From NCBI GenBank assembly GCA_011388305.1, contig DSAF01000158.1, positions 2,212-66,211 on the forward strand: 64,000 nucleotides of DNA, in the 5' to 3' direction. Positions 4,049 to 59,192 of the stretch are shown one piece after another. Positions within the stretch are counted from its first letter, which is position 1; the number at the start of each line of letters is the position of its first letter. The notes under the pieces were generated by a model. It searched no databases. It saw only the letters and a list, made by a program, of their open reading frames with translations, and had not been told where the DNA came from. This DNA is from Candidatus Zixiibacteriota bacterium (GTDB lineage: Bacteria > UBP14 > UBA6098). A program made the translations under genes and the position numbers.

Positions 4049-4168
4049 ATTTCGCGGCCGGCCAATTCGGCCGATGTTCCGTCAATTTATTCCAAATGCA
4101 TTGGTATTTCAAGCTATTTGTGAAATTTTTTCGCCGGAAGCTCTCGCTTTTTTGCTCAATTTCGCCTC

Positions 4169-4304
4169 GCGCGGGGGCGTCGGCGCGCGTAAACGCGCCG
4201 CGAAGTAGTCGGAGCGCGATCCTGCACAACAAAGAAAGTCTTCCGCCCGACTACTTCGAGCCTGCCTGCGATTTGTAAATCGCAGGCAGGGCCGACGCCC
4301 CGCC
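4169..4304 (+). repeat. copy 1 of a ~135-nt GC-rich structured intergenic repeat (outer stem plus three hairpins)
   Basis: GGGGGCGTCGGC...GCCGACGCCCC outer inverted repeat enclosing three hairpins: GCGCG-TAAA-CGCGC, a 12-bp stem CGAAGTAGTCGG/CCGACTACTTCG with a 34-nt loop, and the palindrome CCTGCCTGCGATTT-GT-AAATCGCAGGCAGG. The same architecture recurs at 26711-26844 and 56386-56522. Confidence 0.8.
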
Positions 4305-4431
4305 ACGAAAAGCGTTAAAGACATCGAGTTCGCGCGAGCATAAGCACTGCTTGATTTGTCGCTATATATGGTTATATTTCGCGCTTAAAGGAGTTCAGAT
4401 ATTCAGAACGCGTTCTGAAGGACGGAGTAAT

Positions 4432-11848: not shown

Positions 11849-11974
11849 TTCTATCTCCTCTATTGATTTATGATTTGTGATTGATGATTATAGATTGGAA
11901 GGCGAGCGACTTTGGGTCGAACCCCGCCTTTTACAATCTTCAATCTCCAATCATCAATCTGAAATCCAAGTGCT
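11849..11974 (-). promoter_or_regulatory. conserved 5' leader element, copy A (shared with the secD upstream region)
   Basis: Minus-strand sense reads TTGGATT-CAGATTG-GATTGGAGATTG ... AAAAGGCG-loop-CGCC ... AAATCATAAATCAA-SD-ATG. This is about 70% identical over ~125 nt to 14897-15017. Confidence 0.6.
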
Positions 11975-26597: not shown

Positions 26598-26710
26598 AGT
26601 CACTCCATGACAATCTGAGTTTACAAATTTATAGATTATATTTGAATAGCATCGCAAAGTCAAACCAAAATGCAATTTGGAGTTTGTTTCGATATTTTTG
26701 TGATTTCCGA

Positions 26711-26844
26711 GCAGGGGGCGTCGGCCCTTCCTGCGATTTGTAAAATCGCAGGAAGGTGCGAAGTAGTCGGTGGGCAGTTATTTGCCACAATAAGCAATCG
26801 CGCCCCGACTACTTCGTAGCGCGTTTACGCGCGCCGACGCCCCG
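26711..26844 (-). repeat. copy 2 of the structured intergenic repeat, inverted orientation
   Basis: Module order on the plus strand is outer-D-C-B-outer: TTCCTGCGATTT-GTA-AAATCGCAGGAA, then GCGAAGTAGTCGG...CCGACTACTTCG, then GCGCG-TTTA-CGCGC, bounded by GGGGGCGTCGGC / GCCGACGCCCC. Confidence 0.8.
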
Positions 26845-26919
26845 TGAGGAGCGAAAAAACAGCTTGACTTTCATGAAGGGGATGCGTATTTTTATTAAAA
26901 GTTAGGAAGAATTAACTCA

Positions 26920-44346: not shown

Positions 44347-47178
44347 CTATTCTTTATAAATCAGCACTGCCGGCCTGATAACTCCCGCGCGAATCTGCGT
44401 CCTTCCGGAGATGCTCGCGAGCCTGCCCGCTGAACTCTCGATGACGCCTCGAACTTGCCCGGAAACTTCGTATTCCCCAAAGCCGCTCGTAAAAATAACG
44501 GGAAAAGGCAAAGCCTCGTCGCCGGTATGCGCGAGGCCGAGTTCTCTCCCGCAGAACTTCCTCCAATCGACGCTTGGGATTGACGGCGCTATAATTCCCG
44601 CGACGGCAATCTCGGCGCATCTGCGCAGAAAATCGAGGTCGATTGGTTTCATGGAGGCAATAATTTTGCCCTCGAGTTCCGGTTTTAATGATGAAATGTT
44701 TTCGGCGATTAAGATTTCGCCTGCCGCCTCGCCCCCGAAGCCGATTTTGCCATAGATTTTGCCGGCGGTGGCGAGAATGGTGACGCTTCGTTTAGGTTCA
44801 ACAGCGGTGACTACGCCTCTAACGAAGGCTTTTAGCTCCACAGGTTCGATGTCATATTGGATGGTCACTTTGCCGCTTTTTTGGTCAATATTTTTAATGG
44901 TGCCGGTGCTCGGCGCTTTGATGATAATATTATTTCGCAGATCGCCGGCAATCATCTGGCCAGCCTCGACAAAATCTCCGAGCCTGTATCGGAGATGCCC
45001 GGCGACATGCGATGGCTTGATATGCATAAGCTTTGCGACATGAACGGTGTGCGGCCTGCCGTCATAATCTTGAATTTCTCGCATAATGATAAGGCCGGAC
45101 GGCTCGATTTTTTCAATCATCCCGCGCACCGGCGAACTGAAGTATATTTTGCTCCCGAATATGCCCTCGGTTGCGGCAAAAATCCTCTGACCGATTTTGA
45201 CCGACTCGCCCTCGGCGACGAGGATGCCTTCGGCTATATCCTCTTCACTTAAAGGTTTTTCATAGCCTGCGAGACGATTGATATCGAGAATGTAGAGGCG
45301 CGGAGGGCCGAATCGGTTCTCGCCGATAGTGTCCCATGGTTCGACAGAATCGCCTACTTTGGCCAGAATATCGCCATCGTATGGGAGCTTTCGGTCGATA
45401 GAGTATTCGCCGAACTCGGGCTTTTTTTCTTCGACCATGATTGTATCAACAACTCCGGCATCGCACTTGAACTTTGAAATCCTTCCGCCGAGGAAGAACC
45501 TTCCTCGGCCACGGCAATCAATTATTACGGACATCTCCGTGTTTATTTCGGCGGTTGTTCGGTCGTTCTCGAGGTTGAGTCTGCCATGACACTCTATCAT
45601 GAAATCGCCGCCACCATCGATGATAATCGCCTGTCCGCCTTCGACTATAAGCTTTTCGCCGGTGGTGCGATTCTTGACAGTTAGCGCGGGCTTGCCTCGA
45701 CGAACCTTCCCCAACGGCGCAACGACATGGCCGAGAGACTCGATGCACTCATCTTCGAAGAGGCGGAGGGCTTCATCCGGCTCCACCTTCGAGAAAATGC
45801 CAAGATGCGGCGATTTGAAATGCCTGTCGATTGCAAGCTCTGTGATTCCCGTCGGCATGAAGGCATCGGCAAGGATAATTCTCGCGACATCGCCGGGAAG
45901 ATGCGTGATCACGCCGCCTGCGCCGATGAGGAGCGAAATATCCGAAAGCTGAAATTTCTCCTCGTGTTTGTTCAACTGAAGCACCTCTTCCCAGCGATTG
46001 GAGTCCGCGAGGAGCTTTTTGCGGCGGTCGAGGAAACCGACTCGGCTAATCTTGAAGTTCATATCGACATGCTTTTCCCACGCCATCCGCATTCCCTCGA
46101 TAGCACAAGCATATTCTACGAGTTTCTGCGATTCGGCCTGTGGAACATGCGTAGGATTCAGTGTCTTATTCGCGATGTAATTGCGGATTTCGCCCTCGGG
46201 AATGCCTTCGATGTGCGACGAAACGGCCTCGATGCCAGCCTCCACGAGGATGTTCGACAGCGAATAGCTCATCCCGATGTTCGCCGAAACCGTGCGGTGG
46301 TGTTGCGATTTGATGACCGTGAAAATGTCCGTTGTTGCGCCGCCGATGTCAACCATCGCGATATTTCGGCCGGTTTTGTCTGCGAATGCCGAGAGCATCG
46401 CCTCGACGCCCGCGGGCGTGGGCATGATGTCCGTTTTCACGCTCGATTTCAGTTCGGAATATCCCGGCGCGCGCTCCATGACATTATCCATAAAAAGCTC
46501 ATGAATCTTTGCTTTCGCCGGTTCTGTGTTCATCCTTTCCATGTCCGGCCGGACATTCGGGACGATGTGCACATCGAAATTCTCGGCCAGCAAGTTCGCT
46601 ACAAACGCCCGCGCAGACTTGTTTCCGCAGAAAACCAGCGGAATCTTCTCGCCCTCGCGGAATTTCGGCGAGGGCTTGGCGAGGCTAAGAATCTCTGCAA
46701 GCTCGACGACCGGGGCTATCGCGCCACCATCGATGCCGCCGGCCATGAGAATCATGTCAGGGTGAAGCTCGCTCATGATGCGCATCTTCTCGACCGGCGG
46801 GATTTTGTCGTCTATCGTGAACGTCTTGAGGATGATGCCGCCGGCGCCGTATGCCGTCATCTCGGCGACCGTGCCGGTTTCGTTGGATGAGAGGCCGAAT
46901 ACTAATATCTGCAGGCCGCCACCGGCCGAGCTTGTAGTGAGAAAAGGCGCAGTGAGTTTTCCGTTGTCGTCGGTGAGGGGCGCGTCTAATCCCTCGCCGA
47001 TGCCCTCGATGAGGCGGCGCAGGCCTACCCGCACATCCTCGTCGGGCTTCTCGACGGTCGTGGCAGTGTCGAACTGTCTCAAGAAACGGAAACCGTCGTC
47101 GGTTCTTTCTAAGAGTAGCCCCTTCGTGGTAGTGCTTCCAATGTCCGTTATCAGTAAATAATTGCTGTTACGTGACAT
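44347..47178 (-). CDS. large fusion protein: GlmL/MutL-like (glutamate-mutase-L / reactivase-like) ASKHA ATPase N-terminal half plus a C-terminal half of four barrel-sandwich-hybrid-like repeats
   Basis: Two ASKHA phosphate motifs, LLITDIGSTTTKG and MVDIGGATTDIFTV. The C-terminal half contains repeated xGDxVxxGQxIA motifs: KVGDSVEPWDTIG, VAEGESVKIGQRIFAA, GDFVEAGQMIAGDL. The start is set at MSRNSNY, preceded by GGCGGAGGAAAAA. Confidence 0.6.
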   Translation of the reverse strand: MSRNSNYLLITDIGSTTTKGLLLERTDDGFRFLRQFDTATTVEKPDEDVRVGLRRLIEGIGEGLDAPLTDDNGKLTAPFLTTSSAGGGLQILVFGLSSNETGTVAEMTAYGAGGIILKTFTIDDKIPPVEKMRIMSELHPDMILMAGGIDGGAIAPVVELAEILSLAKPSPKFREGEKIPLVFCGNKSARAFVANLLAENFDVHIVPNVRPDMERMNTEPAKAKIHELFMDNVMERAPGYSELKSSVKTDIMPTPAGVEAMLSAFADKTGRNIAMVDIGGATTDIFTVIKSQHHRTVSANIGMSYSLSNILVEAGIEAVSSHIEGIPEGEIRNYIANKTLNPTHVPQAESQKLVEYACAIEGMRMAWEKHVDMNFKISRVGFLDRRKKLLADSNRWEEVLQLNKHEEKFQLSDISLLIGAGGVITHLPGDVARIILADAFMPTGITELAIDRHFKSPHLGIFSKVEPDEALRLFEDECIESLGHVVAPLGKVRRGKPALTVKNRTTGEKLIVEGGQAIIIDGGGDFMIECHGRLNLENDRTTAEINTEMSVIIDCRGRGRFFLGGRISKFKCDAGVVDTIMVEEKKPEFGEYSIDRKLPYDGDILAKVGDSVEPWDTIGENRFGPPRLYILDINRLAGYEKPLSEEDIAEGILVAEGESVKIGQRIFAATEGIFGSKIYFSSPVRGMIEKIEPSGLIIMREIQDYDGRPHTVHVAKLMHIKPSHVAGHLRYRLGDFVEAGQMIAGDLRNNIIIKAPSTGTIKNIDQKSGKVTIQYDIEPVELKAFVRGVVTAVEPKRSVTILATAGKIYGKIGFGGEAAGEILIAENISSLKPELEGKIIASMKPIDLDFLRRCAEIAVAGIIAPSIPSVDWRKFCGRELGLAHTGDEALPFPVIFTSGFGEYEVSGQVRGVIESSAGRLASISGRTQIRAGVIRPAVLIYKE

Positions 47179-47275
47179 TTTTTCCTCCGCCGTTTGAGGC
47201 GCTGTTCGACACAAATAATTCTTGATGCACAGAATATATATATTCCTGCAAGAATCTGTGGCCTATTGGAACCTA

Positions 47276-47599: not shown

Positions 47600-48181
47600 C
47601 TATCTCCCGAAATCGACCTTCGGCGCCTCGCGCTGGGCGGTGTCGTCCAGTTCGAAATATTCTCTTTTGGCGAAGTTGAACATATTCGCCACGATGTTCG
47701 AGGGGAATTTCTCGCAAGTTGTGTTCAGGTCGCGGACGACGGCGTTGTAGTATCTCCGGCTGTCGGCGAGTGCGCTCTCGATTCTCTCCAACGCGGCCTG
47801 AAGTTCGAGGAAGCTCTGGTCGGCCTTAAGCTCGGGATAGCTCTCGGAGAGCGCGAACAGCTGGCGAAGCGCCTGCGTGAGGACATTCTCCGCCTGCGCC
47901 ATCTTTGCGACATCGTCGGTGACATTTATCGCCTGTTGGCGCGCCTTGATGACGTTTTCCAAGGTTTCGCGCTCGTGGCCGGCATATCCCTTGACTGTCT
48001 CGACGAGGTTCGGTATAAGGTCGTATCGCCGTTTAAGCTGGACATCGACATCCGCCCATGCGTTCTCGGAGCGGTTTTTCAAGCCAACGAGCTTGTTATA
48101 TAACCCTATCCCAACGACAACAATAATAACGACGGCGATGGCGAGTAGCGCCAAACACCCGACTAACAAACCAATGCCCAT
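47600..48181 (-). CDS. lemA: LemA family protein
   Basis: N-terminal TM segment plus the LemA core (NAWADVDVQLKRRYDLIPNLVETVKGYAGHERETLENV). Confidence 0.85.
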   Translation of the reverse strand: MGIGLLVGCLALLAIAVVIIVVVGIGLYNKLVGLKNRSENAWADVDVQLKRRYDLIPNLVETVKGYAGHERETLENVIKARQQAINVTDDVAKMAQAENVLTQALRQLFALSESYPELKADQSFLELQAALERIESALADSRRYYNAVVRDLNTTCEKFPSNIVANMFNFAKREYFELDDTAQREAPKVDFGR

Positions 48182-48195
48182 GAAGGCCTCCTGTG

Positions 48196-48669
48196 TTATC
48201 TCGCGGAATTTTCCATGTCGGAATTCATCTCAAATATAATCGGATAAATCCAAAAAACAATACCAAAAGCAGAAACTGCGCCCACGATAAATCGCGGGAT
48301 GTTGCCGGTGTTCCACAATCCGAAAGTCTGCGCCAGCCCGTCGATTGCAAGCGGCGCGACAAAGGCGAGCAAGCCAAGCAAGGGCAAGGCGAAGCGCCGT
48401 TTGAGCATCATCGAAAAAACGCCGAAAACGAACAGCCCCGCGAAAATTCCGGTGCATCGCGCGCAGAGGCCGAGTTTGTGCCCCATGATAGCGAAACTTC
48501 GCTCCGCGCTCTGATGACAAAGCGGCGCAAGCCCGAGATAGCATCCCGCCGAGCCGAGGGGGCAGGTCTCCGCCAATATCGGCGCCGTAATGCTCGCCAG
48601 AAGAACGACGAACCACACGGCGGTGAGAAGAAGCGCGCCGTTTCGGCCTATCCAGCGGAGTAAACGCAT
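48196..48669 (-). CDS. DUF2085 family membrane protein
   Basis: CHQSAERSF...LCARCTG motif. The start is assigned to MRLLRW, whose ATG overlaps the TGA of the upstream S8 gene (TGATG). Confidence 0.7.
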   Translation of the reverse strand: MRLLRWIGRNGALLLTAVWFVVLLASITAPILAETCPLGSAGCYLGLAPLCHQSAERSFAIMGHKLGLCARCTGIFAGLFVFGVFSMMLKRRFALPLLGLLAFVAPLAIDGLAQTFGLWNTGNIPRFIVGAVSAFGIVFWIYPIIFEMNSDMENSAR

Positions 48670-50642
48670 CAACGGACTACCGCGATTTTCTCGGTGATGG
48701 AGCCGTGCTCCGTGACGAGGCGGACGATGTAAATCCCGTTGGCGATGGGAGTGCCTTTCCCGTTTTTGAGCGGCCATACAATCTCGAACTTGTCAGCAAG
48801 CGACCATCTTTCGTCGAACACCAGCTCTCCCGATGCTGTGAACACCGAGAAATGCGCGTTTTGGCCGGCGTATGCCACAGCGCGCAAATACTCCGAGGCG
48901 GGATTTGGGAAGACCAACAGTTCTGTCTCGCCGTCGCGGTATCTTCCGAAGCGAACCGCCCTGCCCGCGCCATCTACGGTGAAGCTGATTGCTTCCGGAT
49001 AGCCGGGCATATAGAGCGCAACCGATTGCCCTGCCATAGCGAGCGGATCTACGAAGATGCCGAAGGTATCCGTGGCCGAGATTATCGTGGTGTCGTCGTA
49101 TATGAAGTGAATCTCTTTATTGGGGATGACTTCGCCGCTGAGAATATCGACCGCCCTGCCGTAGAAGCCCATCGTCAGGCCTGCGGCCACCGTGCCCTTG
49201 GGAATTCCCCAGCCATAGTCGTTGTCGGCGGAATCGGCGGGGAAGGTCGGGTCGAATGCGCGAACGCGGTCGCCGCTGGCGCGGACGGCCAGCGCAAGGT
49301 CATAGCCGGAAAGCTCGTGGTTTGCGCTTTTAACTGCGGCGCAGAGGCCAGCGATGAGCGGACAAGAGAAGCTTGTGCCGGAACTCCAAGCGATGCCCGC
49401 GTTGGCGTATGCGTTGACGATGACCGTGCCCCATCCTACGGCGGATATGTCGGGCTTGATTCTGCCGTCCGCAGAGGGGCCGGGGCTGGAGAACGAGGCG
49501 ATAACTTTGTCATGTCCAACCGCCGCCACCGCAAGCACGGAGTCGCCGTCGGCGGGGCTGATTATCGTGGGCCAATCAGGCTGTTGGCGGTAATTCCCCG
49601 CCGAATTCACCACGCAAATCCCCCGTGATGCCGCGATGTCCGCCGCGATTGTCGTCACCATCGTGTTGCCGTCGAGGTCGTTCATCGTATATGGAGTCTC
49701 CTCGTCGAATGTCGAATATCCGAGACTGCTCGATGCGATGTCCGCGCCTAAAGAGTCGAGCCACTCGATGCCCGCGACCCAGTTGTCTTCCTCGCCGCGA
49801 TATTCGGCCTCGATGTCCTCGGTTTTGGCGAGTGCCACCGACGCGCGATATGCCGCGCCGATAATCTCCCCCGGCGAGAAGGCCGCGACGCAACTCAAGG
49901 TCTGCGTGCCGTGGCGAAAGCCCATCTCATCGATGTCGCCGGCATCGGGGTCGAAATCGACCGTAGTGTCGTTGTGAACGAAATCATAGACGGCGACTAT
50001 GTCGAGGCTGTCGAACGCTCTATGCGTTGTCCGAAAGCCCGAGTCGAGCATCCCCACGAGCACGCCTTGGCCGGCAAAGCCTCGCTGGTGCAGGTCAATC
50101 GCGCCAATCATCTCCAGTTGCGCACGGGATGCGCCGTAAAAATCGTCCACGCTGTCCACCTCGGAGGGGCGCATGAGCGAGACCGGCTCTATCGGCCTGC
50201 GATATGTCCGCACGGGGCGAATCTCGCGGACGAATGGAAGTTCGGCGATGTTGTGCAATGCCGCCTTGGGCGTGATGAACGACGCCGAGTTCAGCCATCG
50301 GCTGGTTCGTCTGTGGCGCGCGCCGAGCGCAACCACCTGCTCGATATAGCGCGTATTGACGGGCACATCGTGGATGTCCAGCTCGAGGCCGTCCTTGGCT
50401 CTTCTTTCGAGCGCTCTCTCAGAGAGGGTCAGGCGGGCGACTGCGGCTATGCTCATGCCGTCCAAGGGCTTGTCCTCGAAAAACACCCACACCATAAGGG
50501 AGTCTTTGCTCGATGCAAGCAGTCCGGGCGCGATTTTGGGCGAAGCTCCGGCGGTGGCGGAGATGACTGCTATTGCGATTATTGCTGTGATGATGGCTAT
50601 TCTCATGTTGCCTTTCAAACTGTTAAGCGACGGGCGATGCAA
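48669..50642 (-). CDS. subtilisin-like serine peptidase (S8) with an N-terminal fervidolysin-like propeptide and a T9SS C-terminal sorting domain
   Basis: Motifs DSGFRTTHRAFD, HGTQTLSCVAA, GTSFSCPLIAGLCAAV. C-terminus LLVFPNPASEYLR...GIYIVRLV. An alternative start at MRIAIITAI (50606) is possible. Confidence 0.85.
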   Translation of the reverse strand: MHRPSLNSLKGNMRIAIITAIIAIAVISATAGASPKIAPGLLASSKDSLMVWVFFEDKPLDGMSIAAVARLTLSERALERRAKDGLELDIHDVPVNTRYIEQVVALGARHRRTSRWLNSASFITPKAALHNIAELPFVREIRPVRTYRRPIEPVSLMRPSEVDSVDDFYGASRAQLEMIGAIDLHQRGFAGQGVLVGMLDSGFRTTHRAFDSLDIVAVYDFVHNDTTVDFDPDAGDIDEMGFRHGTQTLSCVAAFSPGEIIGAAYRASVALAKTEDIEAEYRGEEDNWVAGIEWLDSLGADIASSSLGYSTFDEETPYTMNDLDGNTMVTTIAADIAASRGICVVNSAGNYRQQPDWPTIISPADGDSVLAVAAVGHDKVIASFSSPGPSADGRIKPDISAVGWGTVIVNAYANAGIAWSSGTSFSCPLIAGLCAAVKSANHELSGYDLALAVRASGDRVRAFDPTFPADSADNDYGWGIPKGTVAAGLTMGFYGRAVDILSGEVIPNKEIHFIYDDTTIISATDTFGIFVDPLAMAGQSVALYMPGYPEAISFTVDGAGRAVRFGRYRDGETELLVFPNPASEYLRAVAYAGQNAHFSVFTASGELVFDERWSLADKFEIVWPLKNGKGTPIANGIYIVRLVTEHGSITEKIAVVR

Positions 50643-50649
50643 TTCGCCT

Positions 50650-51078
50650 CTACATTTGGCGAACGGTTATTTTTCGCTCGCTATCGCTGATTCTATCAAT
50701 CGACACGCGGATAACCCTTTGCGGAAGTAGCTCCTCCCCCCTATCTGCCCATTCTACCAGCGAAATGCCCTCGCCCTCGAAAATCTCCCAAAGCCCGAGT
50801 TGCGCAATATCCTCGTGCTTCTCGACTCGATATAAATCTATGTGATAAATTATCTTATCCGCAATATATTCATGTATTATCGCAAATGACGGACTTGAAA
50901 CCTCTGTCTCGTTGAATCCTAACGCCCTCGCGATGCCCTTAATCATCGTAGTCTTGCCTGCGCCCAAATCGCCGGTAAACGCCACGACATCGCCCTCGCG
51001 GAGATATCCGGCGAACTCTCCGCCAAAACCTGAGGTCTGCTCGGCGGAGCGGCTTATGAAATCGAGCCTCAGCCTCAT
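50650..51078 (-). CDS. tsaE: tRNA threonylcarbamoyladenosine biosynthesis ATPase TsaE
   Basis: Walker A GDLGAGKTT and YjeE-family similarity over 142 aa. There is a 4-nt overlap with porX. Confidence 0.85.
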   Translation of the reverse strand: MRLRLDFISRSAEQTSGFGGEFAGYLREGDVVAFTGDLGAGKTTMIKGIARALGFNETEVSSPSFAIIHEYIADKIIYHIDLYRVEKHEDIAQLGLWEIFEGEGISLVEWADRGEELLPQRVIRVSIDRISDSERKITVRQM

Positions 51079-52634
51079 TTCGGCCTCAGAACCGCCACGG
51101 GAACCACCATCTCCTCGATGCTAATTCCGCCGTGGAGGAAGCTGTTTCGATATTGCCGCTCGAACTGCGAGAAATTCGTCGGATAGACGAAGTAATAATC
51201 CTCTTTGGCGATGATGAAGTTCGTAGTCCGCGTGAAGCTCGGAAGGCGCCAGTCTTTTGGGTTTCGGATGAAGATGCCGCCCTTTTCATCGCAGTTGATG
51301 TTGTCGCCGAATTTATATCGAAGGTTCGGCGATGTGTCTCTCTTGCCGAATGCCTTCGTGCCGCGTCTTCCAATGGTGCTCCCGTGGTCTGTCGTAATTA
51401 CAACGGTGACATTCTCGCGCGCAATCGCCCTAAGAGCTTTGAGCAGGCTCGAATGCGCGAACCAAGTCTTCATTACGCTACGGTATGCGCCCTCGTCAGG
51501 GGACATCTCGCGAAGCACCTCGTTGGCGGCTCTACTGTGGGCGAGGATGTCCAGAAAGTTCGCTACCACGCTGGTCATCGGCGCGGAGAGGTAGCTCTTC
51601 AGCCGGTGGACGAGGCTCTCGCCCTCCTCGGGGTCGAGAATTTTGATGTATTTGGTATCGCCGGGGAGGTCTATGCCGTTTTGGGCTATGAGCTTATCCA
51701 GAAGCTGGTGCTCATAGCGGTTGCGAGAGCTGGAGTCATCCAGCGGATTTATCCACAGGTCGGGGTATCGTTGGGAAATTTCATAGGGGAAAAGCCCGCT
51801 GAACACAGCATTGCGCGCGTAAGGCGTCGCCGAGGGCAGAAGGCTGAAGAACACGTCCGTCTCGATGTTGTAATAGTCGCTGAGGAGAGATTCGACAGTG
51901 AGCCACTGGTCGAGGCGCATGCAGTCGATGACGACAAAGAACACCTTCTCGCCCGCGCCGAGTGCCGGAATCACGTGTTCCCCCGCAACATCGACGGAGA
52001 GCATCGGTCTGTTTTCGCGCTCGCTCCAAATCCATTGTTCCCAATTGCTTTCGATGTAGCGCGAGAACTCGCCGTTGCACTCTCTGCGGAAATCGCGGTG
52101 TGTCCGCGTGAGGCCGAGTTCCGAATGACTGTCGAGGATGACGTCCCATTCGGCCAGCCAGAACGACAGCTCGAGCCACTGCTCGGGAGATGCTTTCTGC
52201 GAGGGCCGCATGACCATATCGCGGTATTCCGTCGTGTAATCACGCGTGAGTTGTTGGCCTACGATGCGTCCCGAGTCGAAAATTCTCTTCAGCGTGGAGA
52301 GTATCTGATGCGGATTGACGGGCTTGACGAGGTAATCTGCGATTTCTTTGCCGATTGCGTCCTCCATCAGCGTCTCCTCCATCGATTTGGTAATCATGAC
52401 GACGGGGATGCGCTTGTCTATTTTGCGGATTTCCTCGAGCGTGGTAAGCCCGTCCATTCCGGGCATCATTTCGTCGAGGAGGACGAGGTCGAATCCGCCG
52501 CTCTGCACCAGCGCGACGGCATCCTCGCCGGAGTGGACGCCCTCGACGGAGTATCCCCTTTCCTGAAGGAAGATTATGTGCGGCTGAAGTTGGGCGATTT
52601 CGTCATCTGCCCAAATAATTCGTTTTTCTGTCAT
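51075..52634 (-). CDS. porX: PorX-like response regulator (CheY receiver plus PglZ/alkaline-phosphatase-like domain), T9SS regulator
   Basis: Receiver domain with a phospho-acceptor Asp (DLVLLDEMMPGMDG) followed by a ~390-aa PglZ domain. At 519 aa it matches PorX architecture. T9SS cargo genes and a histidine kinase are adjacent. Confidence 0.8.
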   Translation of the reverse strand: MTEKRIIWADDEIAQLQPHIIFLQERGYSVEGVHSGEDAVALVQSGGFDLVLLDEMMPGMDGLTTLEEIRKIDKRIPVVMITKSMEETLMEDAIGKEIADYLVKPVNPHQILSTLKRIFDSGRIVGQQLTRDYTTEYRDMVMRPSQKASPEQWLELSFWLAEWDVILDSHSELGLTRTHRDFRRECNGEFSRYIESNWEQWIWSERENRPMLSVDVAGEHVIPALGAGEKVFFVVIDCMRLDQWLTVESLLSDYYNIETDVFFSLLPSATPYARNAVFSGLFPYEISQRYPDLWINPLDDSSSRNRYEHQLLDKLIAQNGIDLPGDTKYIKILDPEEGESLVHRLKSYLSAPMTSVVANFLDILAHSRAANEVLREMSPDEGAYRSVMKTWFAHSSLLKALRAIARENVTVVITTDHGSTIGRRGTKAFGKRDTSPNLRYKFGDNINCDEKGGIFIRNPKDWRLPSFTRTTNFIIAKEDYYFVYPTNFSQFERQYRNSFLHGGISIEEMVVPVAVLRPK

Positions 52635-52700
52635 ATTTTCTCCGGAAAAATAAAAATCTTAACTGTCATCACTGGCGAGCCACCGTCTCGCCCCTACGGG

Positions 52701-52785
52701 TTGTCATTGCGAGACCTGAAAGGTCGAAGCAATCTTGAATGAATTGAGGAGATTGCTTCGTCGCTGTTCTCCTCGCAATGACAAA
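52701..52785 (-). ncRNA. Y-shaped nested hairpin in the porY-porX intergenic region (candidate attenuator/processing site/small RNA)
   Basis: Outer stem TTGTCATTGCGAG/CTCGCAATGACAA (13 bp) encloses GACC-tgaaa-GGTC and GAAGCAATCT-(14 nt)-AGATTGCTTC. Confidence 0.4.
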
Positions 52786-52816
52786 CACTACCTATCACCC
52801 ATAACCCAATACCCTA

Positions 52817-54079
52817 TCACACTTTCGCGCTCTTTGGGAAAGTAATCACAAAGGTCGTCTTTTCGAACGGTTTGCTCTCCAGAAGCGTGAGCCGGCCGAA
52901 ATGATATTCCTCGACGATTCTTTTAGCAAGGGAAAGGCCAAGCCCCCATCCGCGCTTCTTGGTTGTGTATCCGGGGGAGAAAATTTTACGGTAGTTTCGG
53001 GCAGAAATTCCCTTGCCGTTGTCCGTAACGATTATCTGGACATCCTCGCCATCGACGTCCATTCGTGTGGCGACCTTGATTTTTGCGCCATCTTGAGGCG
53101 CGGCCTCCATCGAGTTTCTGATTAGGTTCTCGATTGCCCACGAGAGGAGCATCTGGTTGGCCATCACCGGCGGGACGGGATAATATTGCTCGACTATCTC
53201 CATCCGGCCTCGAAGGCGCGGCATACGCTGGCGGAGATACGCCACAGACTGGTGGATAAGCGATGGCAGTTCTGTAGGCTCCAGCTCGGGCGTCGAGCCG
53301 ATTTGCCCGAAGCGCATGACAATCTTGTTGAGGATTAGTATATCCTCTGAGATTCTGTCGATGATGTCTTGCGGCGAGCGGTTGGAATGCCGGAACGCGC
53401 CGGCGATTTCGGCCTCTTTGATTTCGTCTTTGAGAAGCTCGTTCCATCCCATCATGCTCGAAATGGGCGTGCCGAGCTGATGCGCTGTCTCGCGCGCCAT
53501 TCCCAGCCAGATGTTCTGTTCTTCGTAGAATTTTAGGCGGTTGTATGAGAGATACGAGAACACCAGTAGCAGTGCGACGAGCGTCAGAATGCCTATCGGG
53601 ATGACTCTGAACCATTTAGCAAACGGCGGCTCGCCGAAATAAATATATCCGAGCAACCTGTCTGTTCTGCCGACATAGATTGGCACCGGCGATTGCGCCT
53701 GCCGCATCTTGGCGACCTCCGCGCGGAGCCGCTCGCGGGCTTCCTCGGTTGTATCGTTTCGGGCGATGCCCACATTGCGCCACGACATAGGCTGACCTTC
53801 GACTGATGTGAGTATCATCGGGAAATCGCTTTTGTCTATAATCTCCTCGAAAAAAATTGAAATCTCCGCCGCGCCGGCCGTTCTCAAAGCCGCGAGCGAC
53901 CAAAGTCGCGCATACGCGCTGACGACTCTTCGGTTGTGCTGGGATGTCCTCTCGCGGCTGTAGTTGACTATGTAAAATATGCTCACTACAATGAGAAACC
54001 CCGCAACGACTGCCGTAAGAGAATAGAAGAACGGCACTCCCATATAGGTGATGCGGTATTTTGACCTCGAATTTTTCAA
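52817..54079 (-). CDS. porY: sensor histidine kinase (PorY-like; partner of PorX)
   Basis: Two TM segments, a HisKA H-box (HQLGTPISSMMGW) and a HATPase_c domain (motifs DNGKGI, GLGLSLA). It lies immediately upstream of porX. Confidence 0.75.
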   Translation of the reverse strand: MKNSRSKYRITYMGVPFFYSLTAVVAGFLIVVSIFYIVNYSRERTSQHNRRVVSAYARLWSLAALRTAGAAEISIFFEEIIDKSDFPMILTSVEGQPMSWRNVGIARNDTTEEARERLRAEVAKMRQAQSPVPIYVGRTDRLLGYIYFGEPPFAKWFRVIPIGILTLVALLLVFSYLSYNRLKFYEEQNIWLGMARETAHQLGTPISSMMGWNELLKDEIKEAEIAGAFRHSNRSPQDIIDRISEDILILNKIVMRFGQIGSTPELEPTELPSLIHQSVAYLRQRMPRLRGRMEIVEQYYPVPPVMANQMLLSWAIENLIRNSMEAAPQDGAKIKVATRMDVDGEDVQIIVTDNGKGISARNYRKIFSPGYTTKKRGWGLGLSLAKRIVEEYHFGRLTLLESKPFEKTTFVITFPKSAKV

Positions 54080-54082
54080 CGG

Positions 54083-55363
54083 CTATAACCTCGGGGAAAT
54101 CTCCTCTTGCCCGTGCATATACGGCCTCAACGCGCGGGGAATTTGCACCGTCCCTCGGGCGGTTTGATACGATTCCCATATCGCGACTAAGAGCCTCGGG
54201 AGTGCCACGCCGCTTGCGTTTAGCGTGTGGACGAACTGCACCTGTCCGCCGCTTTCCGGGCGGAAGCGAATGTTCGCTCTCCGCGACTGGAAATCGAGGA
54301 AGTTGCTACAGCTGGATACCTCGAGCCACCTGCCTTCGCCGGGCGCCCAAAGCTCGATGTCATAGACCTTTGCCGACGCGAATGACATGTCGCCCGTCGC
54401 CAGAAGGACGACGCGGTAGTGAAGTTCGAGCGCCTGAAGGACTTTCTCGGCCTGCGCGAGAAGCGACTCGTGTTCCTCCCACGATTTATCGGGATGCGAG
54501 AACTTGACAAGCTCGACCTTGTCGAACTGGTGAACGCGGAGAAGCCCGCGTGTATCTGCACCGTATGAGCCGGCCTCCCTTCGGAAATTGGCCGTGTATC
54601 CCGCGTAGTATATCGGGAGGTTCTCCTCGCGGAGCATTTCGCCGGCGTGGAGATTGGTGATTGGCACCTCGGCGGTGGGGATGAGGAAGAGGTCTTCCTC
54701 GGGGAAGTGATACATGTCGCCTTCGAGCTTAGGGATTTGCGCGGTGCCGGTCATCGCTTGCCTGTTCGCGAGGAACGGGGGCGCGATTTCGAGAAAGCCC
54801 GATTCGCGGTGAATATCCAGCATCATCGCGATAAGGGCGCGGGACATGCGGGCGCCATCGCCGGCGAGGAGCGAGAAGCCGCTACCGGCGACTTTCGCGC
54901 CAAGTTCCATATCGAGCATGCCGAGCATGTCGCCGAGATCGATATGGTCGCGCGGCTCGAAATCGAACTTCGGCGGACTTCCCCACTCGCGGAGAATCAC
55001 ATTTGCCGAAGCATCGCCCACGGGGACGTCATCCGCGGGGATGTTCGGGACTTTGATAAGCAATGCCGACCATCGTGTCTCGGCTTCGCGCTGTTTTTCC
55101 TCGAGGGCTTTCACGCTGTCGGAGAGGGCTTTGGCCTCGGCCTTGAGTTTTTCGGCCAGCTCGCGGTCTCCGCCGGCGAACGCCGCGCCGACTTGCGAGG
55201 ACAATTCTTTTTGCCGATGGCGAAGCTCGTCGCCCTCGGCCTGAAGCGCGCGCCGCTCGGCATCGGCAGTGAGGATTTCGTCAACCACATCTGGCTCGTT
55301 TTTGTTGGCGCAGGCTGATTTTACTAACTCGGGATTTTCTCGAATGATGTTAATGTCTATCAT
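54083..55363 (-). CDS. serS: seryl-tRNA synthetase
   Basis: N-terminal coiled-coil arm and the class II catalytic core. The SerS match covers all 426 aa. Confidence 0.9.
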   Translation of the reverse strand: MIDINIIRENPELVKSACANKNEPDVVDEILTADAERRALQAEGDELRHRQKELSSQVGAAFAGGDRELAEKLKAEAKALSDSVKALEEKQREAETRWSALLIKVPNIPADDVPVGDASANVILREWGSPPKFDFEPRDHIDLGDMLGMLDMELGAKVAGSGFSLLAGDGARMSRALIAMMLDIHRESGFLEIAPPFLANRQAMTGTAQIPKLEGDMYHFPEEDLFLIPTAEVPITNLHAGEMLREENLPIYYAGYTANFRREAGSYGADTRGLLRVHQFDKVELVKFSHPDKSWEEHESLLAQAEKVLQALELHYRVVLLATGDMSFASAKVYDIELWAPGEGRWLEVSSCSNFLDFQSRRANIRFRPESGGQVQFVHTLNASGVALPRLLVAIWESYQTARGTVQIPRALRPYMHGQEEISPRL

Positions 55364-55364
55364 A

Positions 55365-55474
55365 GTTGGGTTTTGGGTTATGGGTTTTGGGTTTTGGGTT
55401 TTGGGTTATGGGTGATTGGGAAAAGGCTAAGGGTTAAAGGTTAAGGGTTAAGGGTAAATGGGTCATGGGTTTGG
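55365..55474 (+). repeat. telomere-like G-rich minisatellite: (GGGTTTT/GGGTTAT)x7 followed by (GGGTTAA)-type units; 14 G3 tracts in 110 nt
   Basis: Direct reading gives GGGTTTTGGGTTATGGGTTTTGGGTTTTGGGTTTTGGGTTATGGGTGATTGGG...AAGGGTTAAAGGGTTAAGGGTTAAGGGTAAATGGGTCATGGG. It fills the whole interval between the stop of the 55475-56305 gene and the serS ATG. Confidence 0.85.
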
Positions 55475-56305
55475 TCATTTTTTTACAGTGAAACGAAATG
55501 CGCAGAACGGCGCGGTCGTGTTTTCCACGCGAAATTCGACGATGTTCTCGCCTTTGGGGAGTTCGATGTCAAAGCGCCGCGCCCTCGCAGGAATAACGCT
55601 CGGCTCGTTCTCGAAAATAGCTGTCTCGGAGATAGACGCGCGGAGCCTCGTGCGCGTCTCCGTTCCGTCCGCCCTCCTAACAACGACGGTGTAATTCTGC
55701 GCGCCCTTCATCGTCTTGTCGAAAGCGAGCCTCGTCCATACGGTTAGCATCCCCGCGCCATTATATTTGATGGTGACCGCCTTCTTGCCTTTGCCGGTGT
55801 AGTAAGTCGAACGGGTGTCCCCAACTACAAGCGCAAGCGCCTTGTCATATCGTTCGGGCGTAATGCGCGATGGGCTTCGCGGGATAGCGATTAGCCGCGC
55901 AAAAAGCTCGCCGTCGGTGGTCATCTTCAGCTCGCGCTTGCCGCGCTCCAGCTTGATTTTCAGTATTTTCGCCTGAGTGACCGGCACGGGCTTGGCCTTG
56001 CCAACCTCCATGCGGTATTTCTTCGATGGCCTCTCCGAGAAAGTGAAGCGCTTGAACTCCGCGCCATCGATGTGGAGAACAAAATCTGCGGACTTGCCCG
56101 CCTCGGCGCGAACATATAGGTGCACATATCCCGGGCCTTCGGCCGTCCACTCAATTGGGGTTTTGGCTGTAAGTTGTGAATATGAGTATCGTCCGTCGCC
56201 GCCGATAAGCCTGCACTGTGTGCCGGCCCTCTTCGGCTGAATCAACTGCGCAGTCGCCGTGAAGGCGAGCGCAAATATCGCACCGACGATGATTGTCTTC
56301 CGCAT
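55475..56305 (-). CDS. hypothetical secreted protein
   Basis: 276 aa with a signal peptide (MRKTIIVGAIFALAFTATAQ). Lys/Arg-rich; no family assigned. Confidence 0.55.
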   Translation of the reverse strand: MRKTIIVGAIFALAFTATAQLIQPKRAGTQCRLIGGDGRYSYSQLTAKTPIEWTAEGPGYVHLYVRAEAGKSADFVLHIDGAEFKRFTFSERPSKKYRMEVGKAKPVPVTQAKILKIKLERGKRELKMTTDGELFARLIAIPRSPSRITPERYDKALALVVGDTRSTYYTGKGKKAVTIKYNGAGMLTVWTRLAFDKTMKGAQNYTVVVRRADGTETRTRLRASISETAIFENEPSVIPARARRFDIELPKGENIVEFRVENTTAPFCAFRFTVKK

Positions 56306-56385: not shown

Positions 56386-56522
56386 GCAGGGGGGCGTCGG
56401 CGGCCGTGAACGGCCAGCGAAGTAGTCGGGGCAGAATCGTCGCTTTGTGCAAAAAATCTCCCCCGACTACTTCGCTCTCACCTGCGATTTGTTAAATCGC
56501 AGGTGAGGCCGACGCCCCCCCC
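56386..56522 (+). repeat. copy 3 of the structured intergenic repeat
   Basis: GGGGGGCGTCGGC / GGCCG-TGAA-CGGCC / GCGAAGTAGTCGGGG...CCCCGACTACTTCGC / CTCACCTGCGATTT-GTT-AAATCGCAGGTGAG / GCCGACGCCCCCC. Stems are kept by compensatory substitutions relative to copy 1. Confidence 0.8.
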
Positions 56523-56544: not shown

Positions 56545-57894
56545 TTAAATCTCGCCGTATTCTTCAAGCTTGCGGTAGAGCGTTCTCAGGCCTATGCCGA
56601 GAATTTCGGCGGCGCGCTTCTTATCGCCATCGCACTCTTCGAGCGTCTCGAGAATGGCAGTGCGCTCCAAATCGCGAATCGGAATGCCCCCGAGCTTGCC
56701 GCTATCGAACGAGCGCTCGACTCGAATCGTCTCGGGGACATTCGACAGCACCGGCTCCGGGCTGAAAATCGCCATCTGCTCGAGCGCGTGCTTTAACTCG
56801 CGGATGTTTCCCGGCCATTTATATTCCATGAAGACCTCCATCGCCTCCTCGGAGAGGGCCTCGAGCTTGCGGTTGAGTTGCACCGAGAGGCGGTTGAGAA
56901 AGAACTCCACGAGGCGCGGAATGTCCTCTTTGCGCTCGCGAAGCGGCGGTAGGTCTATTGTGACAACGCGCAACCGATACAGCAAATCCTGACGGAATTC
57001 GCCTTTGCGGACGGCTTCGTCGAGGTCGCGGTTAGTCGATGAGACGACGCGCAAATCGAGCTGTTTCGAGCCTCTTCCGCCGAGGCGCTCGACCGTGGAG
57101 TTCTCGAGCACACGAAGAAGTTTCGGCTGAAGCCTCAACGGGACATCGCCAATCTCATCGAGGACGATAGTTCCGCCGGATGACTGCTCGAATTTGCCCG
57201 GCCTGCTGTCGGTGGCACCTGTGAAAGCGCCCTTTTCATGGCCGAAAAGCTCGCTCTCCATGAGTGTCTCCGGTATCGCCGAGCAGTTAACCTTGACCAG
57301 CGGGCCTTCCGCACGCGATGACACCTTGTGAATCGCGTCGGCGACCAGCTCTTTGCCGGTGCCGCTTTCGCCGGTGATGAGCACCGTTGTGTCAATCGGC
57401 GCGACGGCCTTGACTTGCTCGAAAACTTTGACGATGGCCGGAGATTCCCCCACGATGCCCATCCACGCGCCCTCACCACGAAGCGCCGACTCGAGTTCCT
57501 TCTGCCGACGAATCATGTGCGACACCTCGAGAGCCTTGTCGGCCAACGCGCGGAGACGGCGTATATCGACGGGCTTCGTGAGATAGTCGTATGCGCCCTT
57601 CTTCATCGCCTCGATTGCCGTATCGACGGAGCCGTGGCCGGTGACGAGGATTACCTCCGCCGGCGACTCGGCGGTTCGCGCCATTTCGAGAAGGTCGATG
57701 CCGCCGATAGTCCCCGGAAGCATGAGGTCGGCAATGAGGAGGTCGATGTCGAGCTTCTCGAAGAGCTTTTTGGCCTGTTCGCCGGTCTGGGCGGTATGTA
57801 TAATTCGGTCTTCGGTTTCGAGAACTTCGCTCAAAGTCTCGAGCTGAGCCGGTTCGTCGTCAACTACGAGCAGGTGATTCTTATTGTCTTGCAT
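56545..57894 (-). CDS. sigma-54-dependent response regulator (NtrC family: receiver, AAA+ and Fis-type HTH)
   Basis: Receiver Asp (DLLIADLMLPG), Walker A GESGTGKE, the GAFTGA motif and a C-terminal HTH. Confidence 0.9.
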   Translation of the reverse strand: MQDNKNHLLVVDDEPAQLETLSEVLETEDRIIHTAQTGEQAKKLFEKLDIDLLIADLMLPGTIGGIDLLEMARTAESPAEVILVTGHGSVDTAIEAMKKGAYDYLTKPVDIRRLRALADKALEVSHMIRRQKELESALRGEGAWMGIVGESPAIVKVFEQVKAVAPIDTTVLITGESGTGKELVADAIHKVSSRAEGPLVKVNCSAIPETLMESELFGHEKGAFTGATDSRPGKFEQSSGGTIVLDEIGDVPLRLQPKLLRVLENSTVERLGGRGSKQLDLRVVSSTNRDLDEAVRKGEFRQDLLYRLRVVTIDLPPLRERKEDIPRLVEFFLNRLSVQLNRKLEALSEEAMEVFMEYKWPGNIRELKHALEQMAIFSPEPVLSNVPETIRVERSFDSGKLGGIPIRDLERTAILETLEECDGDKKRAAEILGIGLRTLYRKLEEYGEI

Positions 57895-57920
57895 GGCCTC
57901 TTCTGGTTATGTGATTATCT

Positions 57921-59192
57921 TCATCTTGGCAATGATACCGTGAAAGTCGTCCCCACACCGGGCTTGCTCTCAACGCGAACGCTCCCGCCGTGGTCCATCG
58001 CGACGCGCCGGACAATCGCCAGCCCAACGCCGGTGCCGGTTTCTTTGTTTGTTGTGTATGGCTCGAAAATCCGCTCCATCTGCTTTTTCTCGATGCCGCA
58101 CCCCTCGTCGATTATAGCGACATGCACCCTCCGCGAAGTTTTGCTTATCGAAACGACTATATCGTCGCCGGACTGGCATGCATCGCGGGCGTTGAGAAGC
58201 AAGTTCAAAAAAAGTTGCCGAAGCTGTTCGGCATCGCCGCGAATCTCGGGGATTTCCTCCTTGACATCGATTCGAATGCGCATTCCCGCGCTCTCGAACT
58301 CCGGCCCGACGAACTCGGCGAGCCGCGTCAGGGCATCGACTATGTCCATCTTCGCGAGATTGAGTTTCGGCGGGCGCGCAAACCTCAGGAAGCTCGTCAA
58401 AATGCTGTCGAGGCGCATGACCTCCGAGCGGACACGCGAGAGCTTGAGGCGCGTCTTCTCGTCCTCACCGCCGAGCTTCTCGTCGAGAAGCTGAATGTTC
58501 ATGTTAATAGTATTCAAAGGGTTACGAATCTCGTGGGCGAGGCTTCCGGCGATTTCGCCTAAATATGCCAGCCGGCTCTGCCGCTCGATTTCCTGCCTAA
58601 GCCTTCGAACCCTCCGCACCATAAATCCGCCATAAGCGATTGCCACGGCTATCGCGCCCAGCGCGAGCGCAAACAGCACGCGCAGTAAATTCCCCGCGCG
58701 GTCGGTGACCTCGGCAAGCTCGGGCGTCAGTCCCTCCTGCGGAATCCCCGCGTGGAGCACTCTTCCGCCAGGCATGCCCACGGCGATGTCATAGACGGGG
58801 ATTCGCACGCCCGGGCCGGTCAGCACCAGCGGCTGAATGCCCTTGTCCTGAATCTTCCCGAGCGCAAGCGCCTGCGGGATGCCCATGTTGAAAACAACGC
58901 CGCCGTCGGCATCCGCGGCCACGATGTAGATGAACCCGTATTTCTCCATAATCGTGCGGATTCTCGCGCGGTCGTTGGGCGAAATGAATCCCTCGGCGAG
59001 GCGCTCGGCGATGAAATCCCCAAGCTCGCGCGTGTCGATTAGAGCATCATTGAGCGTCGCCTCGAGAAGCTTCTCGGAGAAATCCGACAAATAGAACTGG
59101 CTGATACCATAACCGCCGGCCACCACCGCGACGAACATCACCGCAGTCCGCATGGCTAAATGTATCACGCGCTTTCTGTCTTCGGGTATCAT
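57921..59192 (-). CDS. sensor histidine kinase (NtrB-like partner of the sigma-54 regulator)
   Basis: TM-anchored sensor, HisKA H-box (LAHEIRNPLNTI) and a HATPase_c domain (motifs DEGCGI, GTGVGL). Confidence 0.85.
   Translation of the reverse strand: MIPEDRKRVIHLAMRTAVMFVAVVAGGYGISQFYLSDFSEKLLEATLNDALIDTRELGDFIAERLAEGFISPNDRARIRTIMEKYGFIYIVAADADGGVVFNMGIPQALALGKIQDKGIQPLVLTGPGVRIPVYDIAVGMPGGRVLHAGIPQEGLTPELAEVTDRAGNLLRVLFALALGAIAVAIAYGGFMVRRVRRLRQEIERQSRLAYLGEIAGSLAHEIRNPLNTINMNIQLLDEKLGGEDEKTRLKLSRVRSEVMRLDSILTSFLRFARPPKLNLAKMDIVDALTRLAEFVGPEFESAGMRIRIDVKEEIPEIRGDAEQLRQLFLNLLLNARDACQSGDDIVVSISKTSRRVHVAIIDEGCGIEKKQMERIFEPYTTNKETGTGVGLAIVRRVAMDHGGSVRVESKPGVGTTFTVSLPR

Follow-up and report, generated by a model that had tools for sequence, protein, structure and literature searches.

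The window analysed here, a 64-kb stretch of a Candidatus Zixiibacteriota genome, carries on its minus strand the gene for PorX, a type IX secretion system (T9SS) response regulator, with a histidine kinase gene before it and a tsaE/ubK-family gene after it. A spacer of 182 nucleotides (nt), occupied by a strong hairpin and other repeats, separates the kinase gene from porX. This arrangement is probably a conserved gene cluster whose kinase-porX junction was split by insertion of a palindrome similar to the repetitive extragenic palindromic (REP) elements and bacterial interspersed mosaic elements (BIME), and not a conserved regulator of PorXY. The element is present in the spacer, it is a member of a dispersed family, it is absent in relatives, and the gene overlap has been lost.

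The hairpin in the kinase-porX spacer

The spacer is composed of the following parts, listed 5′ to 3′ after the spacer itself.

52635-52816, minus strand: kinase-porX spacer, 182 nt, read directly
52786..52816, minus strand: G3-tract repeat TAGGGTATTGGGTTATGGGTGATAGGTAGTG, of the reverse-complement type of the repeat before serS (the seryl-tRNA synthetase gene), read directly
52701..52784, minus strand: 84-nt nested palindrome, a copy of a dispersed family, from its sequence, fold and family membership
52782-52772, minus strand: hairpin block GTCATTGCGAG
52760-52750, minus strand: hairpin block CGAAGCAATCT
52735-52725, minus strand: hairpin block AGATTGCTTCG
52724-52714, minus strand: 3′ middle segment ACCTTTCAGGT, a possible mini-hairpin
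52713-52703, minus strand: hairpin block CTCGCAATGAC
52674..52697, minus strand: second hairpin GTAG-GGGCGAG-ACGGT-GGCTCGCC (stem GTAGGGGCGAG-ACGGT-GGCTCGCC), REP-like in form, with a GTAG head and a palindrome
52635..52660, minus strand: A/U-rich stretch and then GGAG (52643-52640), 5 nt 5′ of the porX ATG, read directly

The outer arms of the main hairpin are 13 nt long (52701-52713 and 52772-52784) and exact complements, as are the 11-nt inner arms inside them. As RNA, the 85-nt stretch 52701-52785 folded at -36.6 kcal/mol, compared with -16.8 ± 3.0 kcal/mol for its shuffled versions (z = -6.7); none of 200 shuffles was as good. The initial annotation had described this stretch as a Y-shaped hairpin. 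A stable hairpin is indeed present there; at minimum energy it is one long hairpin that contains an internal loop. The Y-shaped fold, with the side hairpin ACCU-UUC-AGGU, lies 1.8 kcal/mol (RNA) or 0.3 kcal/mol (DNA) above this minimum, and the branched plan is borne out family-wide, as described below. In the window copy, the four core blocks are intact. Of its branches, the 5′ one (GAGAACAGCGA) is degenerate and the 3′ one is intact, a hairpin of 4 bp closed by a TTC loop.

The very stable fold and its position between two genes whose dosage ratio normally matters would favour a dedicated device, that is, an attenuator or RNase-processing site selected to set the kinase:regulator ratio. The second hairpin and the U-rich stretch downstream of the main hairpin point the same way. 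We nevertheless consider such a device improbable. The main hairpin is followed by AACCCGUAGG, with no direct U-tract; the second stem likewise has no U-tract directly after it, and the U-rich run begins only 16 nt past that stem. A scan for intrinsic (Rho-independent) terminators found nothing within 52635-52816. In two-component systems the regulator is usually in excess over the kinase, and an attenuator at this place would lower the regulator relative to the kinase, the opposite of what is usual. The Rfam covariance scan of the hairpin that the initial annotation had suggested gave no match at E ≤ 1. The comparison with relatives, below, also argues against a dedicated device.

The GGAG upstream of porX is a predicted independent ribosome-binding site. 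The G3-/C3-tract heptamers are telomere-like (AACCCAA and TAACCCT; GGGTTAT on the other strand) and fill two spacers of the one operon. Such tracts could form G-quadruplex or i-motif structures. The second hairpin was considered as a repeat family of its own and rejected as a singleton, because among the other loci compared it was found only in L307, a locus from the same genome.

An internal promoter in the spacer, which would make porX, tsaE and the downstream genes a separate transcription unit, could be suggested by the A/T-rich end of the spacer and by the lost coupling to the kinase gene. It is an unlikely explanation: a scan for sigma-70-type promoters found none on the minus strand of the spacer, a weak test as the promoter types of this phylum lie outside the scan, and the nearest such site, at 52929-52901 inside the kinase gene, matched only 9 of 12 positions.

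Palindromes can cause misassembly, and the hairpin could in principle be an assembly artefact or a chimeric join. This is highly improbable, since the flanking genes are syntenic with those of relatives, and the 182-nt spacer recurs unchanged, between the same flanking genes, in an independent Logan assembly of run SRR7787372. The insertion is, therefore, real.

Absence of the hairpin in relatives

We compared the kinase-porX junction with those of PorX relatives, taking one genome per species (80 loci returned). The closest locus was from a genome labelled UBP14, with a PorX 85% identical to that of the window. In the five closest species (L001-L005), the spacer between the two genes measured -8 to 29 nt, with no hairpin blocks at the junction. 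In three relatives found through their kinase (L308, L310 and L311), the kinase and porX genes overlapped by 14, 8 and 8 nt, respectively. In total, the hairpin was absent from the junction in nine relatives with kinases 58-75% identical to that of the window (L001-L005 and L308-L311), L308 and L309 being two assemblies of one sequence. Over 36 other loci, the median spacer was 9.5 nt and the extremes were -9 and 99 nt, with many genes overlapping. The 182 nt in the window were the longest among all the kinase-porX junctions compared.

The hairpin is thus missing from the nine relatives and from the 36 other junctions, and it is a copy of a repeat known from unrelated phyla. The proposal of the initial annotation that it sets the stoichiometry of kinase and regulator was not upheld.

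The kinase gene of the window ends in tandem in-frame stop codons, TGA TAG (52814-52819). The C-terminal tail of its product is 8-20 residues shorter than those of the relatives, whose tails extend into porX. The shortened tail fits an insertion that would have truncated the old 3′ end. In L308, a divergent gene just upstream of the same cluster (positions 1-164) encodes a peptidase of the gingipain family, C25, that bears a T9SS sorting domain.

A dispersed family of branched palindromes

The hairpin was assigned to its family with the search pattern CATTGCGAG..CGAAGCAATC..GATTGCTTCG. At least 120 metagenome contigs and 105 viral contigs matched this pattern, and the 225 loci fetched contained 168 complete copies with all four blocks. 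The window copy matched the family blocks exactly: each outer arm agreed at 11 of 11 positions and each inner arm at 10 of 10. By our own arithmetic, about 3e-10 occurrences of the 29-base pattern would be expected by chance in 64 kb. The exact block matches settle the family membership.

Copies of the family share a plan: GTCATTGCGAG, a middle segment, CGAAGCAATC, 2-4 variable complementary bases, a copy-specific loop of 6-35 nt, and then the first three parts in mirror image. In 78% of the copies, compared with an expectation of about 6%, the variable bases beside the inner stem were complementary over 2 bp or more, and compensatory changes in the inner stem were seen in the Novosphingobium copies. 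The middle segments are either 5 nt long (CGNAG) or about 11 nt long, the latter of the form GA-GCGNAGC-GA and its relatives. Among 84 distinct long segments, 74% could close on themselves over at least 2 bp (8% for shuffled segments), and their stems varied in a compensating manner (GCC/GGC, GGC/GCC, GCAC/GTGC). These patterns argue that the family is a branched palindrome with a three- or four-way junction. Pairing between a short and a long middle segment was rejected, because the variable base was complementary in only 13 of 24 informative cases and self-folding of the long segment fits better.

A search of plasmids with the atypical window copy gave one partial match, while a search with a canonical copy recovered named hosts in plasmid and chromid records: Novosphingobium, Methylosinus, Methylocystis, Methylobacterium, the cyanobacterium Aulosira, Halomonas and Legionella. 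In Novosphingobium resinovorum, the replicon pSA1 has the family element at 40 places or more. In all four annotated records, the copy was intergenic, between convergent or co-directional genes. It began 13-20 nt past a stop codon in three of them, and in Aulosira it was 191 nt from the nearer gene. One annotated copy lies inside a co-directional run of dioxygenase genes, comparable to the in-operon copy of the window. Intergenic tests based on six-frame stop-free stretches or on greedy longest open reading frames (ORFs) were unreliable on high-GC contigs, where they called 91% and 83%, respectively, of random positions coding; the four annotated records were relied on in their place. With this reservation, the greedy-ORF test placed 32% of the copies in intergenic regions, compared with 6.5% of random positions.

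In some loci the element forms tandem arrays in which it alternates with a second, unrelated hairpin at periods of 121, 124 and 157 nt (L115 3970-5020, L148 1895-2265 and L267 3050-3440). In L115, the array runs to 8 or 9 near-identical units. The only clusters of neighbouring ORFs near copies encoded phage structural proteins or proteins resembling those of gene transfer agents; they reflect the viral contig sample and were rejected as partners. An Rfam scan of 13 canonical copies gave only sub-threshold matches to models of microRNA-precursor hairpins. A full-text literature search for the sequence blocks of the element returned unrelated primers only.

The window contains other structured repeats. 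A different one, about 130 nt long and containing nested inverted repeats, has three copies (4167-4308, 26712-26846 and 56389-56520), the third of them just upstream of the cluster's probable promoter. Its arms are GGGGGCGTCGGC/GCCGACGCCCC (outer), CGAAGTAGTCGG/CCGACTACTTCG (inner) and ..CTGCGATTT/AAATCGCAG... An inverted repeat with 26-nt arms of A/T-rich, GATTG-type units lies in a spacer at 11872-11966.

Gene order and gene junctions

The genes of the run and their neighbouring spacer are as follows, from 5′ to 3′ on the minus strand.

55475..56305, minus strand: 276-aa secreted-looking protein, family unassigned, an ORF and the probable first gene of the cluster
55364..55474, minus strand: spacer before serS, 111 nt, filled by a C3-tract heptamer repeat (AACCCAA / TAACCCT type), read directly
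54083..55363, minus strand: serS, seryl-tRNA synthetase (PF00587, E = 4e-39; PF02403, E = 3e-27)
52817..54079, minus strand: membrane sensor histidine kinase of PorY-type architecture (annotated start ATG at 54043, 408 aa)
51075..52634, minus strand: porX, response regulator with a PglZ / alkaline-phosphatase-like domain, from profile and structure matches
50650..51078, minus strand: tsaE / ubK-family ATPase (PF02367, E = 2e-37; TIGR00150)
48669..50606, minus strand: S8 subtilase carrying a signal peptide and, at its C-terminus, a T9SS type A sorting domain (PF00082, E = 6e-32; TIGR04183)
48196..48669, minus strand: DUF2085 membrane protein (PF09858, E = 8e-23)
47600..48181, minus strand: LemA-family protein (PF04011, E = 3e-60), 14 nt 3′ of the DUF2085 gene

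The order serS, histidine kinase, spacer, porX, tsaE, S8 protease and DUF2085 agreed with the initial annotation by ORFs, Pfam and NCBIfam. Judged from their spacing, the genes are packed tightly enough to form one predicted transcription unit. The 276-aa protein had no match in an NCBIfam profile search. Its gene has a counterpart of 278-279 aa, without a Pfam match, in L308 and L310, where this junction with serS is only 4 nt long as against the repeat-filled 111 nt of the window. At 56362-56334, 5′ of the 276-aa gene, is a sigma-70-like site with 11 of 12 positions in agreement.

It had been claimed that every junction downstream of porX overlaps. This is the case for two of the three: the porX stop and the tsaE start overlap in ATGA, and the S8 stop and the DUF2085 start in TGATG. 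Between the tsaE stop (50652-50650) and the S8 ATG (50606), there is a gap of 43 nt and no overlap. The ATG at 50606 is also the start chosen by the gene caller on the independent contig, and even with an upstream TTG start the gap is still 7 nt. The proposed translational coupling of PorX, therefore, extends by overlap to tsaE, while the chain of overlaps that would join it to the T9SS protease is broken at the tsaE-S8 junction.

Directly downstream of the cluster, 44347-47214 encodes a 955-aa protein with a long unassigned C-terminal extension; its N-terminal 385-490 residues match models of the GlmL family (methylaspartate mutase accessory / ornithine degradation) below their cut-offs. Just upstream, on the same strand, is a second two-component pair (56545-59192). 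From its translation, with no domain search, the ORF 56545-57894 reads like a sigma-54-type response regulator (receiver, AAA+ and helix-turn-helix parts), and its partner 57921-59192 is histidine-kinase-like.

Protein identities

The response regulator is a bona fide PorX, as had been annotated. It scored 626.7 bits against the NCBIfam PorX equivalog NF052313 (cut-off 300), and it matched the solved PorX structures of P. gingivalis and F. johnsoniae over its full length (PDB 7PV7, E = 5e-131 over residues 5-519; 8TED, E = 7e-129). It has a receiver domain (PF00072, E = 4e-24) and a C-terminal PglZ domain (PF08665, E = 2.5e-16). Its D54 aligns with the phospho-acceptor D58 of P. gingivalis, in a column invariant in 82 sequences.

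The kinase had been named PorY. PorY has two transmembrane segments, a periplasmic region, and phospho-acceptor and ATPase domains (PMC4800418). The window kinase has hydrophobic segments at about residues 15-37 and 158-180, read from the translation, a HATPase_c domain (E = 1e-18) and a HisKA match of 23.4 bits, just under the 26.9-bit cut-off. It adjoins porX and has the PorY-type architecture, and the name rests on that architecture: no match named PorY was found among the NCBIfam matches, the PDB matches (PDB has no PorY) or the best 120 homologues, which were all close relatives. A 408-aa protein labelled Zixibacteria at NCBI (P0001) is 100% identical to the kinase.

TsaE scored 128.5 bits against PF02367 (cut-off 26.6) and 118.2 bits against TIGR00150 (cut-off 60.1). 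The motifs of the TsaE/YjeE/UbK family are Walker A, SPT/S, HxDxYR and EW (PMC13241743), and the translation has all of them as GAGKTT, SPS, HIDLYR and EW. The label of a housekeeping tRNA-modification gene given in the initial annotation is better worded as a member of the TsaE/YjeE/UbK family, whose P. gingivalis member UbK1 phosphorylates PorX in vitro (PMC13241743). With these data from P. gingivalis, the porX-tsaE linkage already has a published functional lead.

For the S8 protease, the annotated T9SS C-terminal domain was confirmed by TIGR04183 (T9SS type A sorting domain) above the curated cut-off, with 29.0 bits against 23 over residues 565-643 of 645. Pfam PF18962 was not reported for this protein at E ≤ 0.001. 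Its N-terminus, read from the translation, is signal-like (MRIAIITAIIAIAVISATAGA). Another S8 protease, encoded at 23730-26675, likewise has a T9SS type A sorting domain (33.4 bits; cut-off 23), and a 931-aa protein at 15089-17884 has a PorP/SprF-like region (57.7 against a cut-off of 90.6) and OmpA-like repeats. From these predicted products, the T9SS is evidently present in this organism. No T9SS core machinery genes were seen within the 64 kb.

Conservation of the cluster across phyla

The comparison of porX loci proposed in the initial annotation showed that the linkage serS-kinase-porX-tsaE recurs across FCB (Fibrobacteres-Chlorobi-Bacteroidetes) phyla. The gene following porX was tsaE in 65 of 75 loci, the gene directly 5′ was a homologous kinase in 34 of 63, and serS directly preceded the kinase in 31 of 57. 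The frequent adjacency of kinase and porX genes, often with an overlap, supports phosphotransfer from the kinase to PorX only indirectly. Loci that include the kinase came from UBP14, Zixibacteria, Ignavibacteria, Gemmatimonadota and Eisenbacteria; Cloacimonadota, KSB1, Marinimicrobia and Calditrichota also had the porX-tsaE pair on its own. The genes for the S8 protease, DUF2085 and LemA after tsaE were restricted to the UBP14-like lineage (L001-L005), with the S8 gene also in L308. This distribution indicates that serS-kinase-porX-tsaE is an old and widely conserved cluster of the FCB superphylum.

For T9SS biology, this comparative synteny, rather than the hairpin, is the useful result. P. 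gingivalis has porX and porY at separate loci, and both have been termed orphans (PMC4800418, PMC10951265). That PorY is PorX's physiological partner has been put in doubt by a structural study (PMC9757075). Beyond the class Bacteroidia, many FCB phyla have porX right after a dedicated kinase gene and right before tsaE/ubK. The conserved kinase-porX pair offers a concrete candidate partner for PorX in a field where porX and porY count as orphans.

The link between porX and ubK, reported in 2026 in a single species, extends across phyla, while the mapped tyrosine does not. In that study, ubK1, the sole gene of the TsaE/YjeE family, was downstream of porX in 81 P. gingivalis strains, and UbK1 phosphorylated PorX Tyr79 in vitro; the Y79A change had no effect on secretion (PMC13241743). 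The PorX residue aligned to Tyr79 is an arginine in the window (...IDKRIPVV...). Over 82 aligned PorX sequences, this column had H in 22, S in 16, N in 10, A in 10, R in 7 and Y in 5 (the reference from P. gingivalis included), plus others. Tyr79 is thus not conserved, although tsaE follows porX in most of the aligned loci. As the linkage is broad and the site is rare, the adjacency is much older and broader than the mapped site. It might reflect either another site, another kind of partnership or merely a historical linkage.

The sorting domain of the P. gingivalis cargo protein PorA is a ligand of PorY (PMC12152298). As a speculation, the cargo protease in the same gene run would be compatible with a feedback of the PorA-PorY kind.

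How the spacer may have arisen

We favour the following history of the split junction. The ancestral kinase and porX genes would have overlapped or lain a few bases apart, and they were probably translated in a coupled way. The cluster is extended in this lineage by the S8 T9SS cargo protease, DUF2085 and LemA genes. In this genome alone, an intergenic repeat mosaic, consisting of the G3-tract repeat, the 84-nt nested-palindrome copy and the GTAG-headed second hairpin, has pushed the junction apart to 182 nt. The new A/U-rich stretch and the GGAG ribosome-binding site after the mosaic would serve porX, the translation of which would now be independent of that of the kinase. As REP elements do in enterobacterial operons, the stable hairpin might have incidental effects on read-through or on the decay of the mRNA. 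For the transcript, the hairpin might act as a partial stop, as a barrier to 3′ exonucleases, or not at all. A purpose-built control is unlikely, since the repeat is promiscuous and the hairpin is a lone copy of it that is not conserved.

Several points weigh against this history. The closest relatives are only 75-85% identical at the protein level, and neither the time of the insertion nor its exact boundaries could be fixed. The 64-kb window has one family copy, and related FCB loci totalling about 0.8 Mb have none, which gives no evidence of mobility within this lineage. No transposase or recurrent neighbour gene was found near the copies in the 225 loci, in a weak test with six-frame ORFs. 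Finally, the element may have acquired a regulatory effect in this genome.

Such a co-option might stabilise the upstream serS-kinase mRNA against 3′ exonucleases, or partially terminate transcription, and so lead to differential expression within the operon. Such effects of REP elements are established for enterobacteria, with the malEFG operon of E. coli as an example. The position of the window element is analogous to that of REP/BIME, 3′ of a stop codon and between co-directional genes; the hairpin is stable, and porX has a putative ribosome-binding site of its own. However, the hairpin begins about 32 nt after the stop codon, and a single copy in a single lineage gives no sign of selection. 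We regard an incidental and perhaps co-opted effect as possible rather than likely.

A bolder combined proposal concerns both the element and the cluster, and we put it forward tentatively, as doubtful. The element might belong to an undescribed class of branched palindromic DNA elements that spread horizontally and act as single-stranded DNA, and, as the milder part, serS-kinase-porX-tsaE might be the ancestral form of PorXY. The core of the element, about 42 nt, hardly differs between Alphaproteobacteria, Gammaproteobacteria, Cyanobacteria, an FCB candidate phylum and contigs classed as viral. Its branches are DNA mini-hairpins of the extremely stable GCGNAGC type, which are known from single-strand replication-initiation signals. 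If the first part were true, the element would not be a lineage-bound REP, and its machinery would be one still unknown. If the second were true, the true cognate kinase of PorX would be identified, and the partnership of PorX with TsaE/UbK would be far older than the Tyr79 site.

The inserted palindrome also carries a warning for genome annotation: an eye-catching hairpin within an operon may turn out to be one copy of a repeat that is promiscuous. Of all that is described here, the family of palindromic repeats is explained the least, and it deserves a census of its own.

Comparison with known systems

The element resembles the REP/BIME of enterobacteria and pseudomonads in several respects: these are imperfect palindromes in short intergenic spacers after stop codons, with many copies in some genomes and in mosaic or tandem arrangement with other hairpins (PMC2817692). 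The main element is longer than they are (about 65-100 nt), nested and branched. The head sequences listed for REPs are GTAG/GGAG (PMC2817692); the main element has no such head and starts with GTCATTGCGAG, and only the neighbouring singleton hairpin is GTAG-headed. REPs are lineage-specific, whereas the core of this element is nearly identical across phyla. The association of REPs with RAYT-type transposases was not found near the element in the 225 loci, by a weak ORF-based test.

GCGNAGC, or GCGNNAGC, is an exceptionally stable DNA mini-hairpin motif (PMC13037366). The canonical side branch of the family, GA-GCGNAGC-GA, has this form, and the short CGNAG segment is flanked by G and C, which yields the very motif; all four bases were observed at N. 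In contrast, the window copy has a degenerate 5′ branch, and the 4-bp hairpin of its 3′ branch is of another kind.

Another parallel may be found in Rhizobium. A 1995 report by Osteras et al. (cited in PMC10459465) reportedly placed intergenic mosaic elements specific to Rhizobium (RIME) in the two-component operon chvI-exoS. There too, palindromic repeats are said to form a mosaic that separates the genes of an essential two-component system, though they are of another sequence family and have a restricted host range.

As for the genes themselves, the window resembles the PorX/UbK1 system of P. gingivalis in its full-length homologous PorX, in a tsaE/ubK-family gene immediately 3′ of porX and in the presence of T9SS cargo proteins. 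It differs in having the kinase gene directly 5′ of porX and serS before the kinase, where P. gingivalis has porX and porY apart, and in having arginine in place of Tyr79, the target of UbK1. The cluster belongs to a known system, in a conserved, little-noted arrangement.

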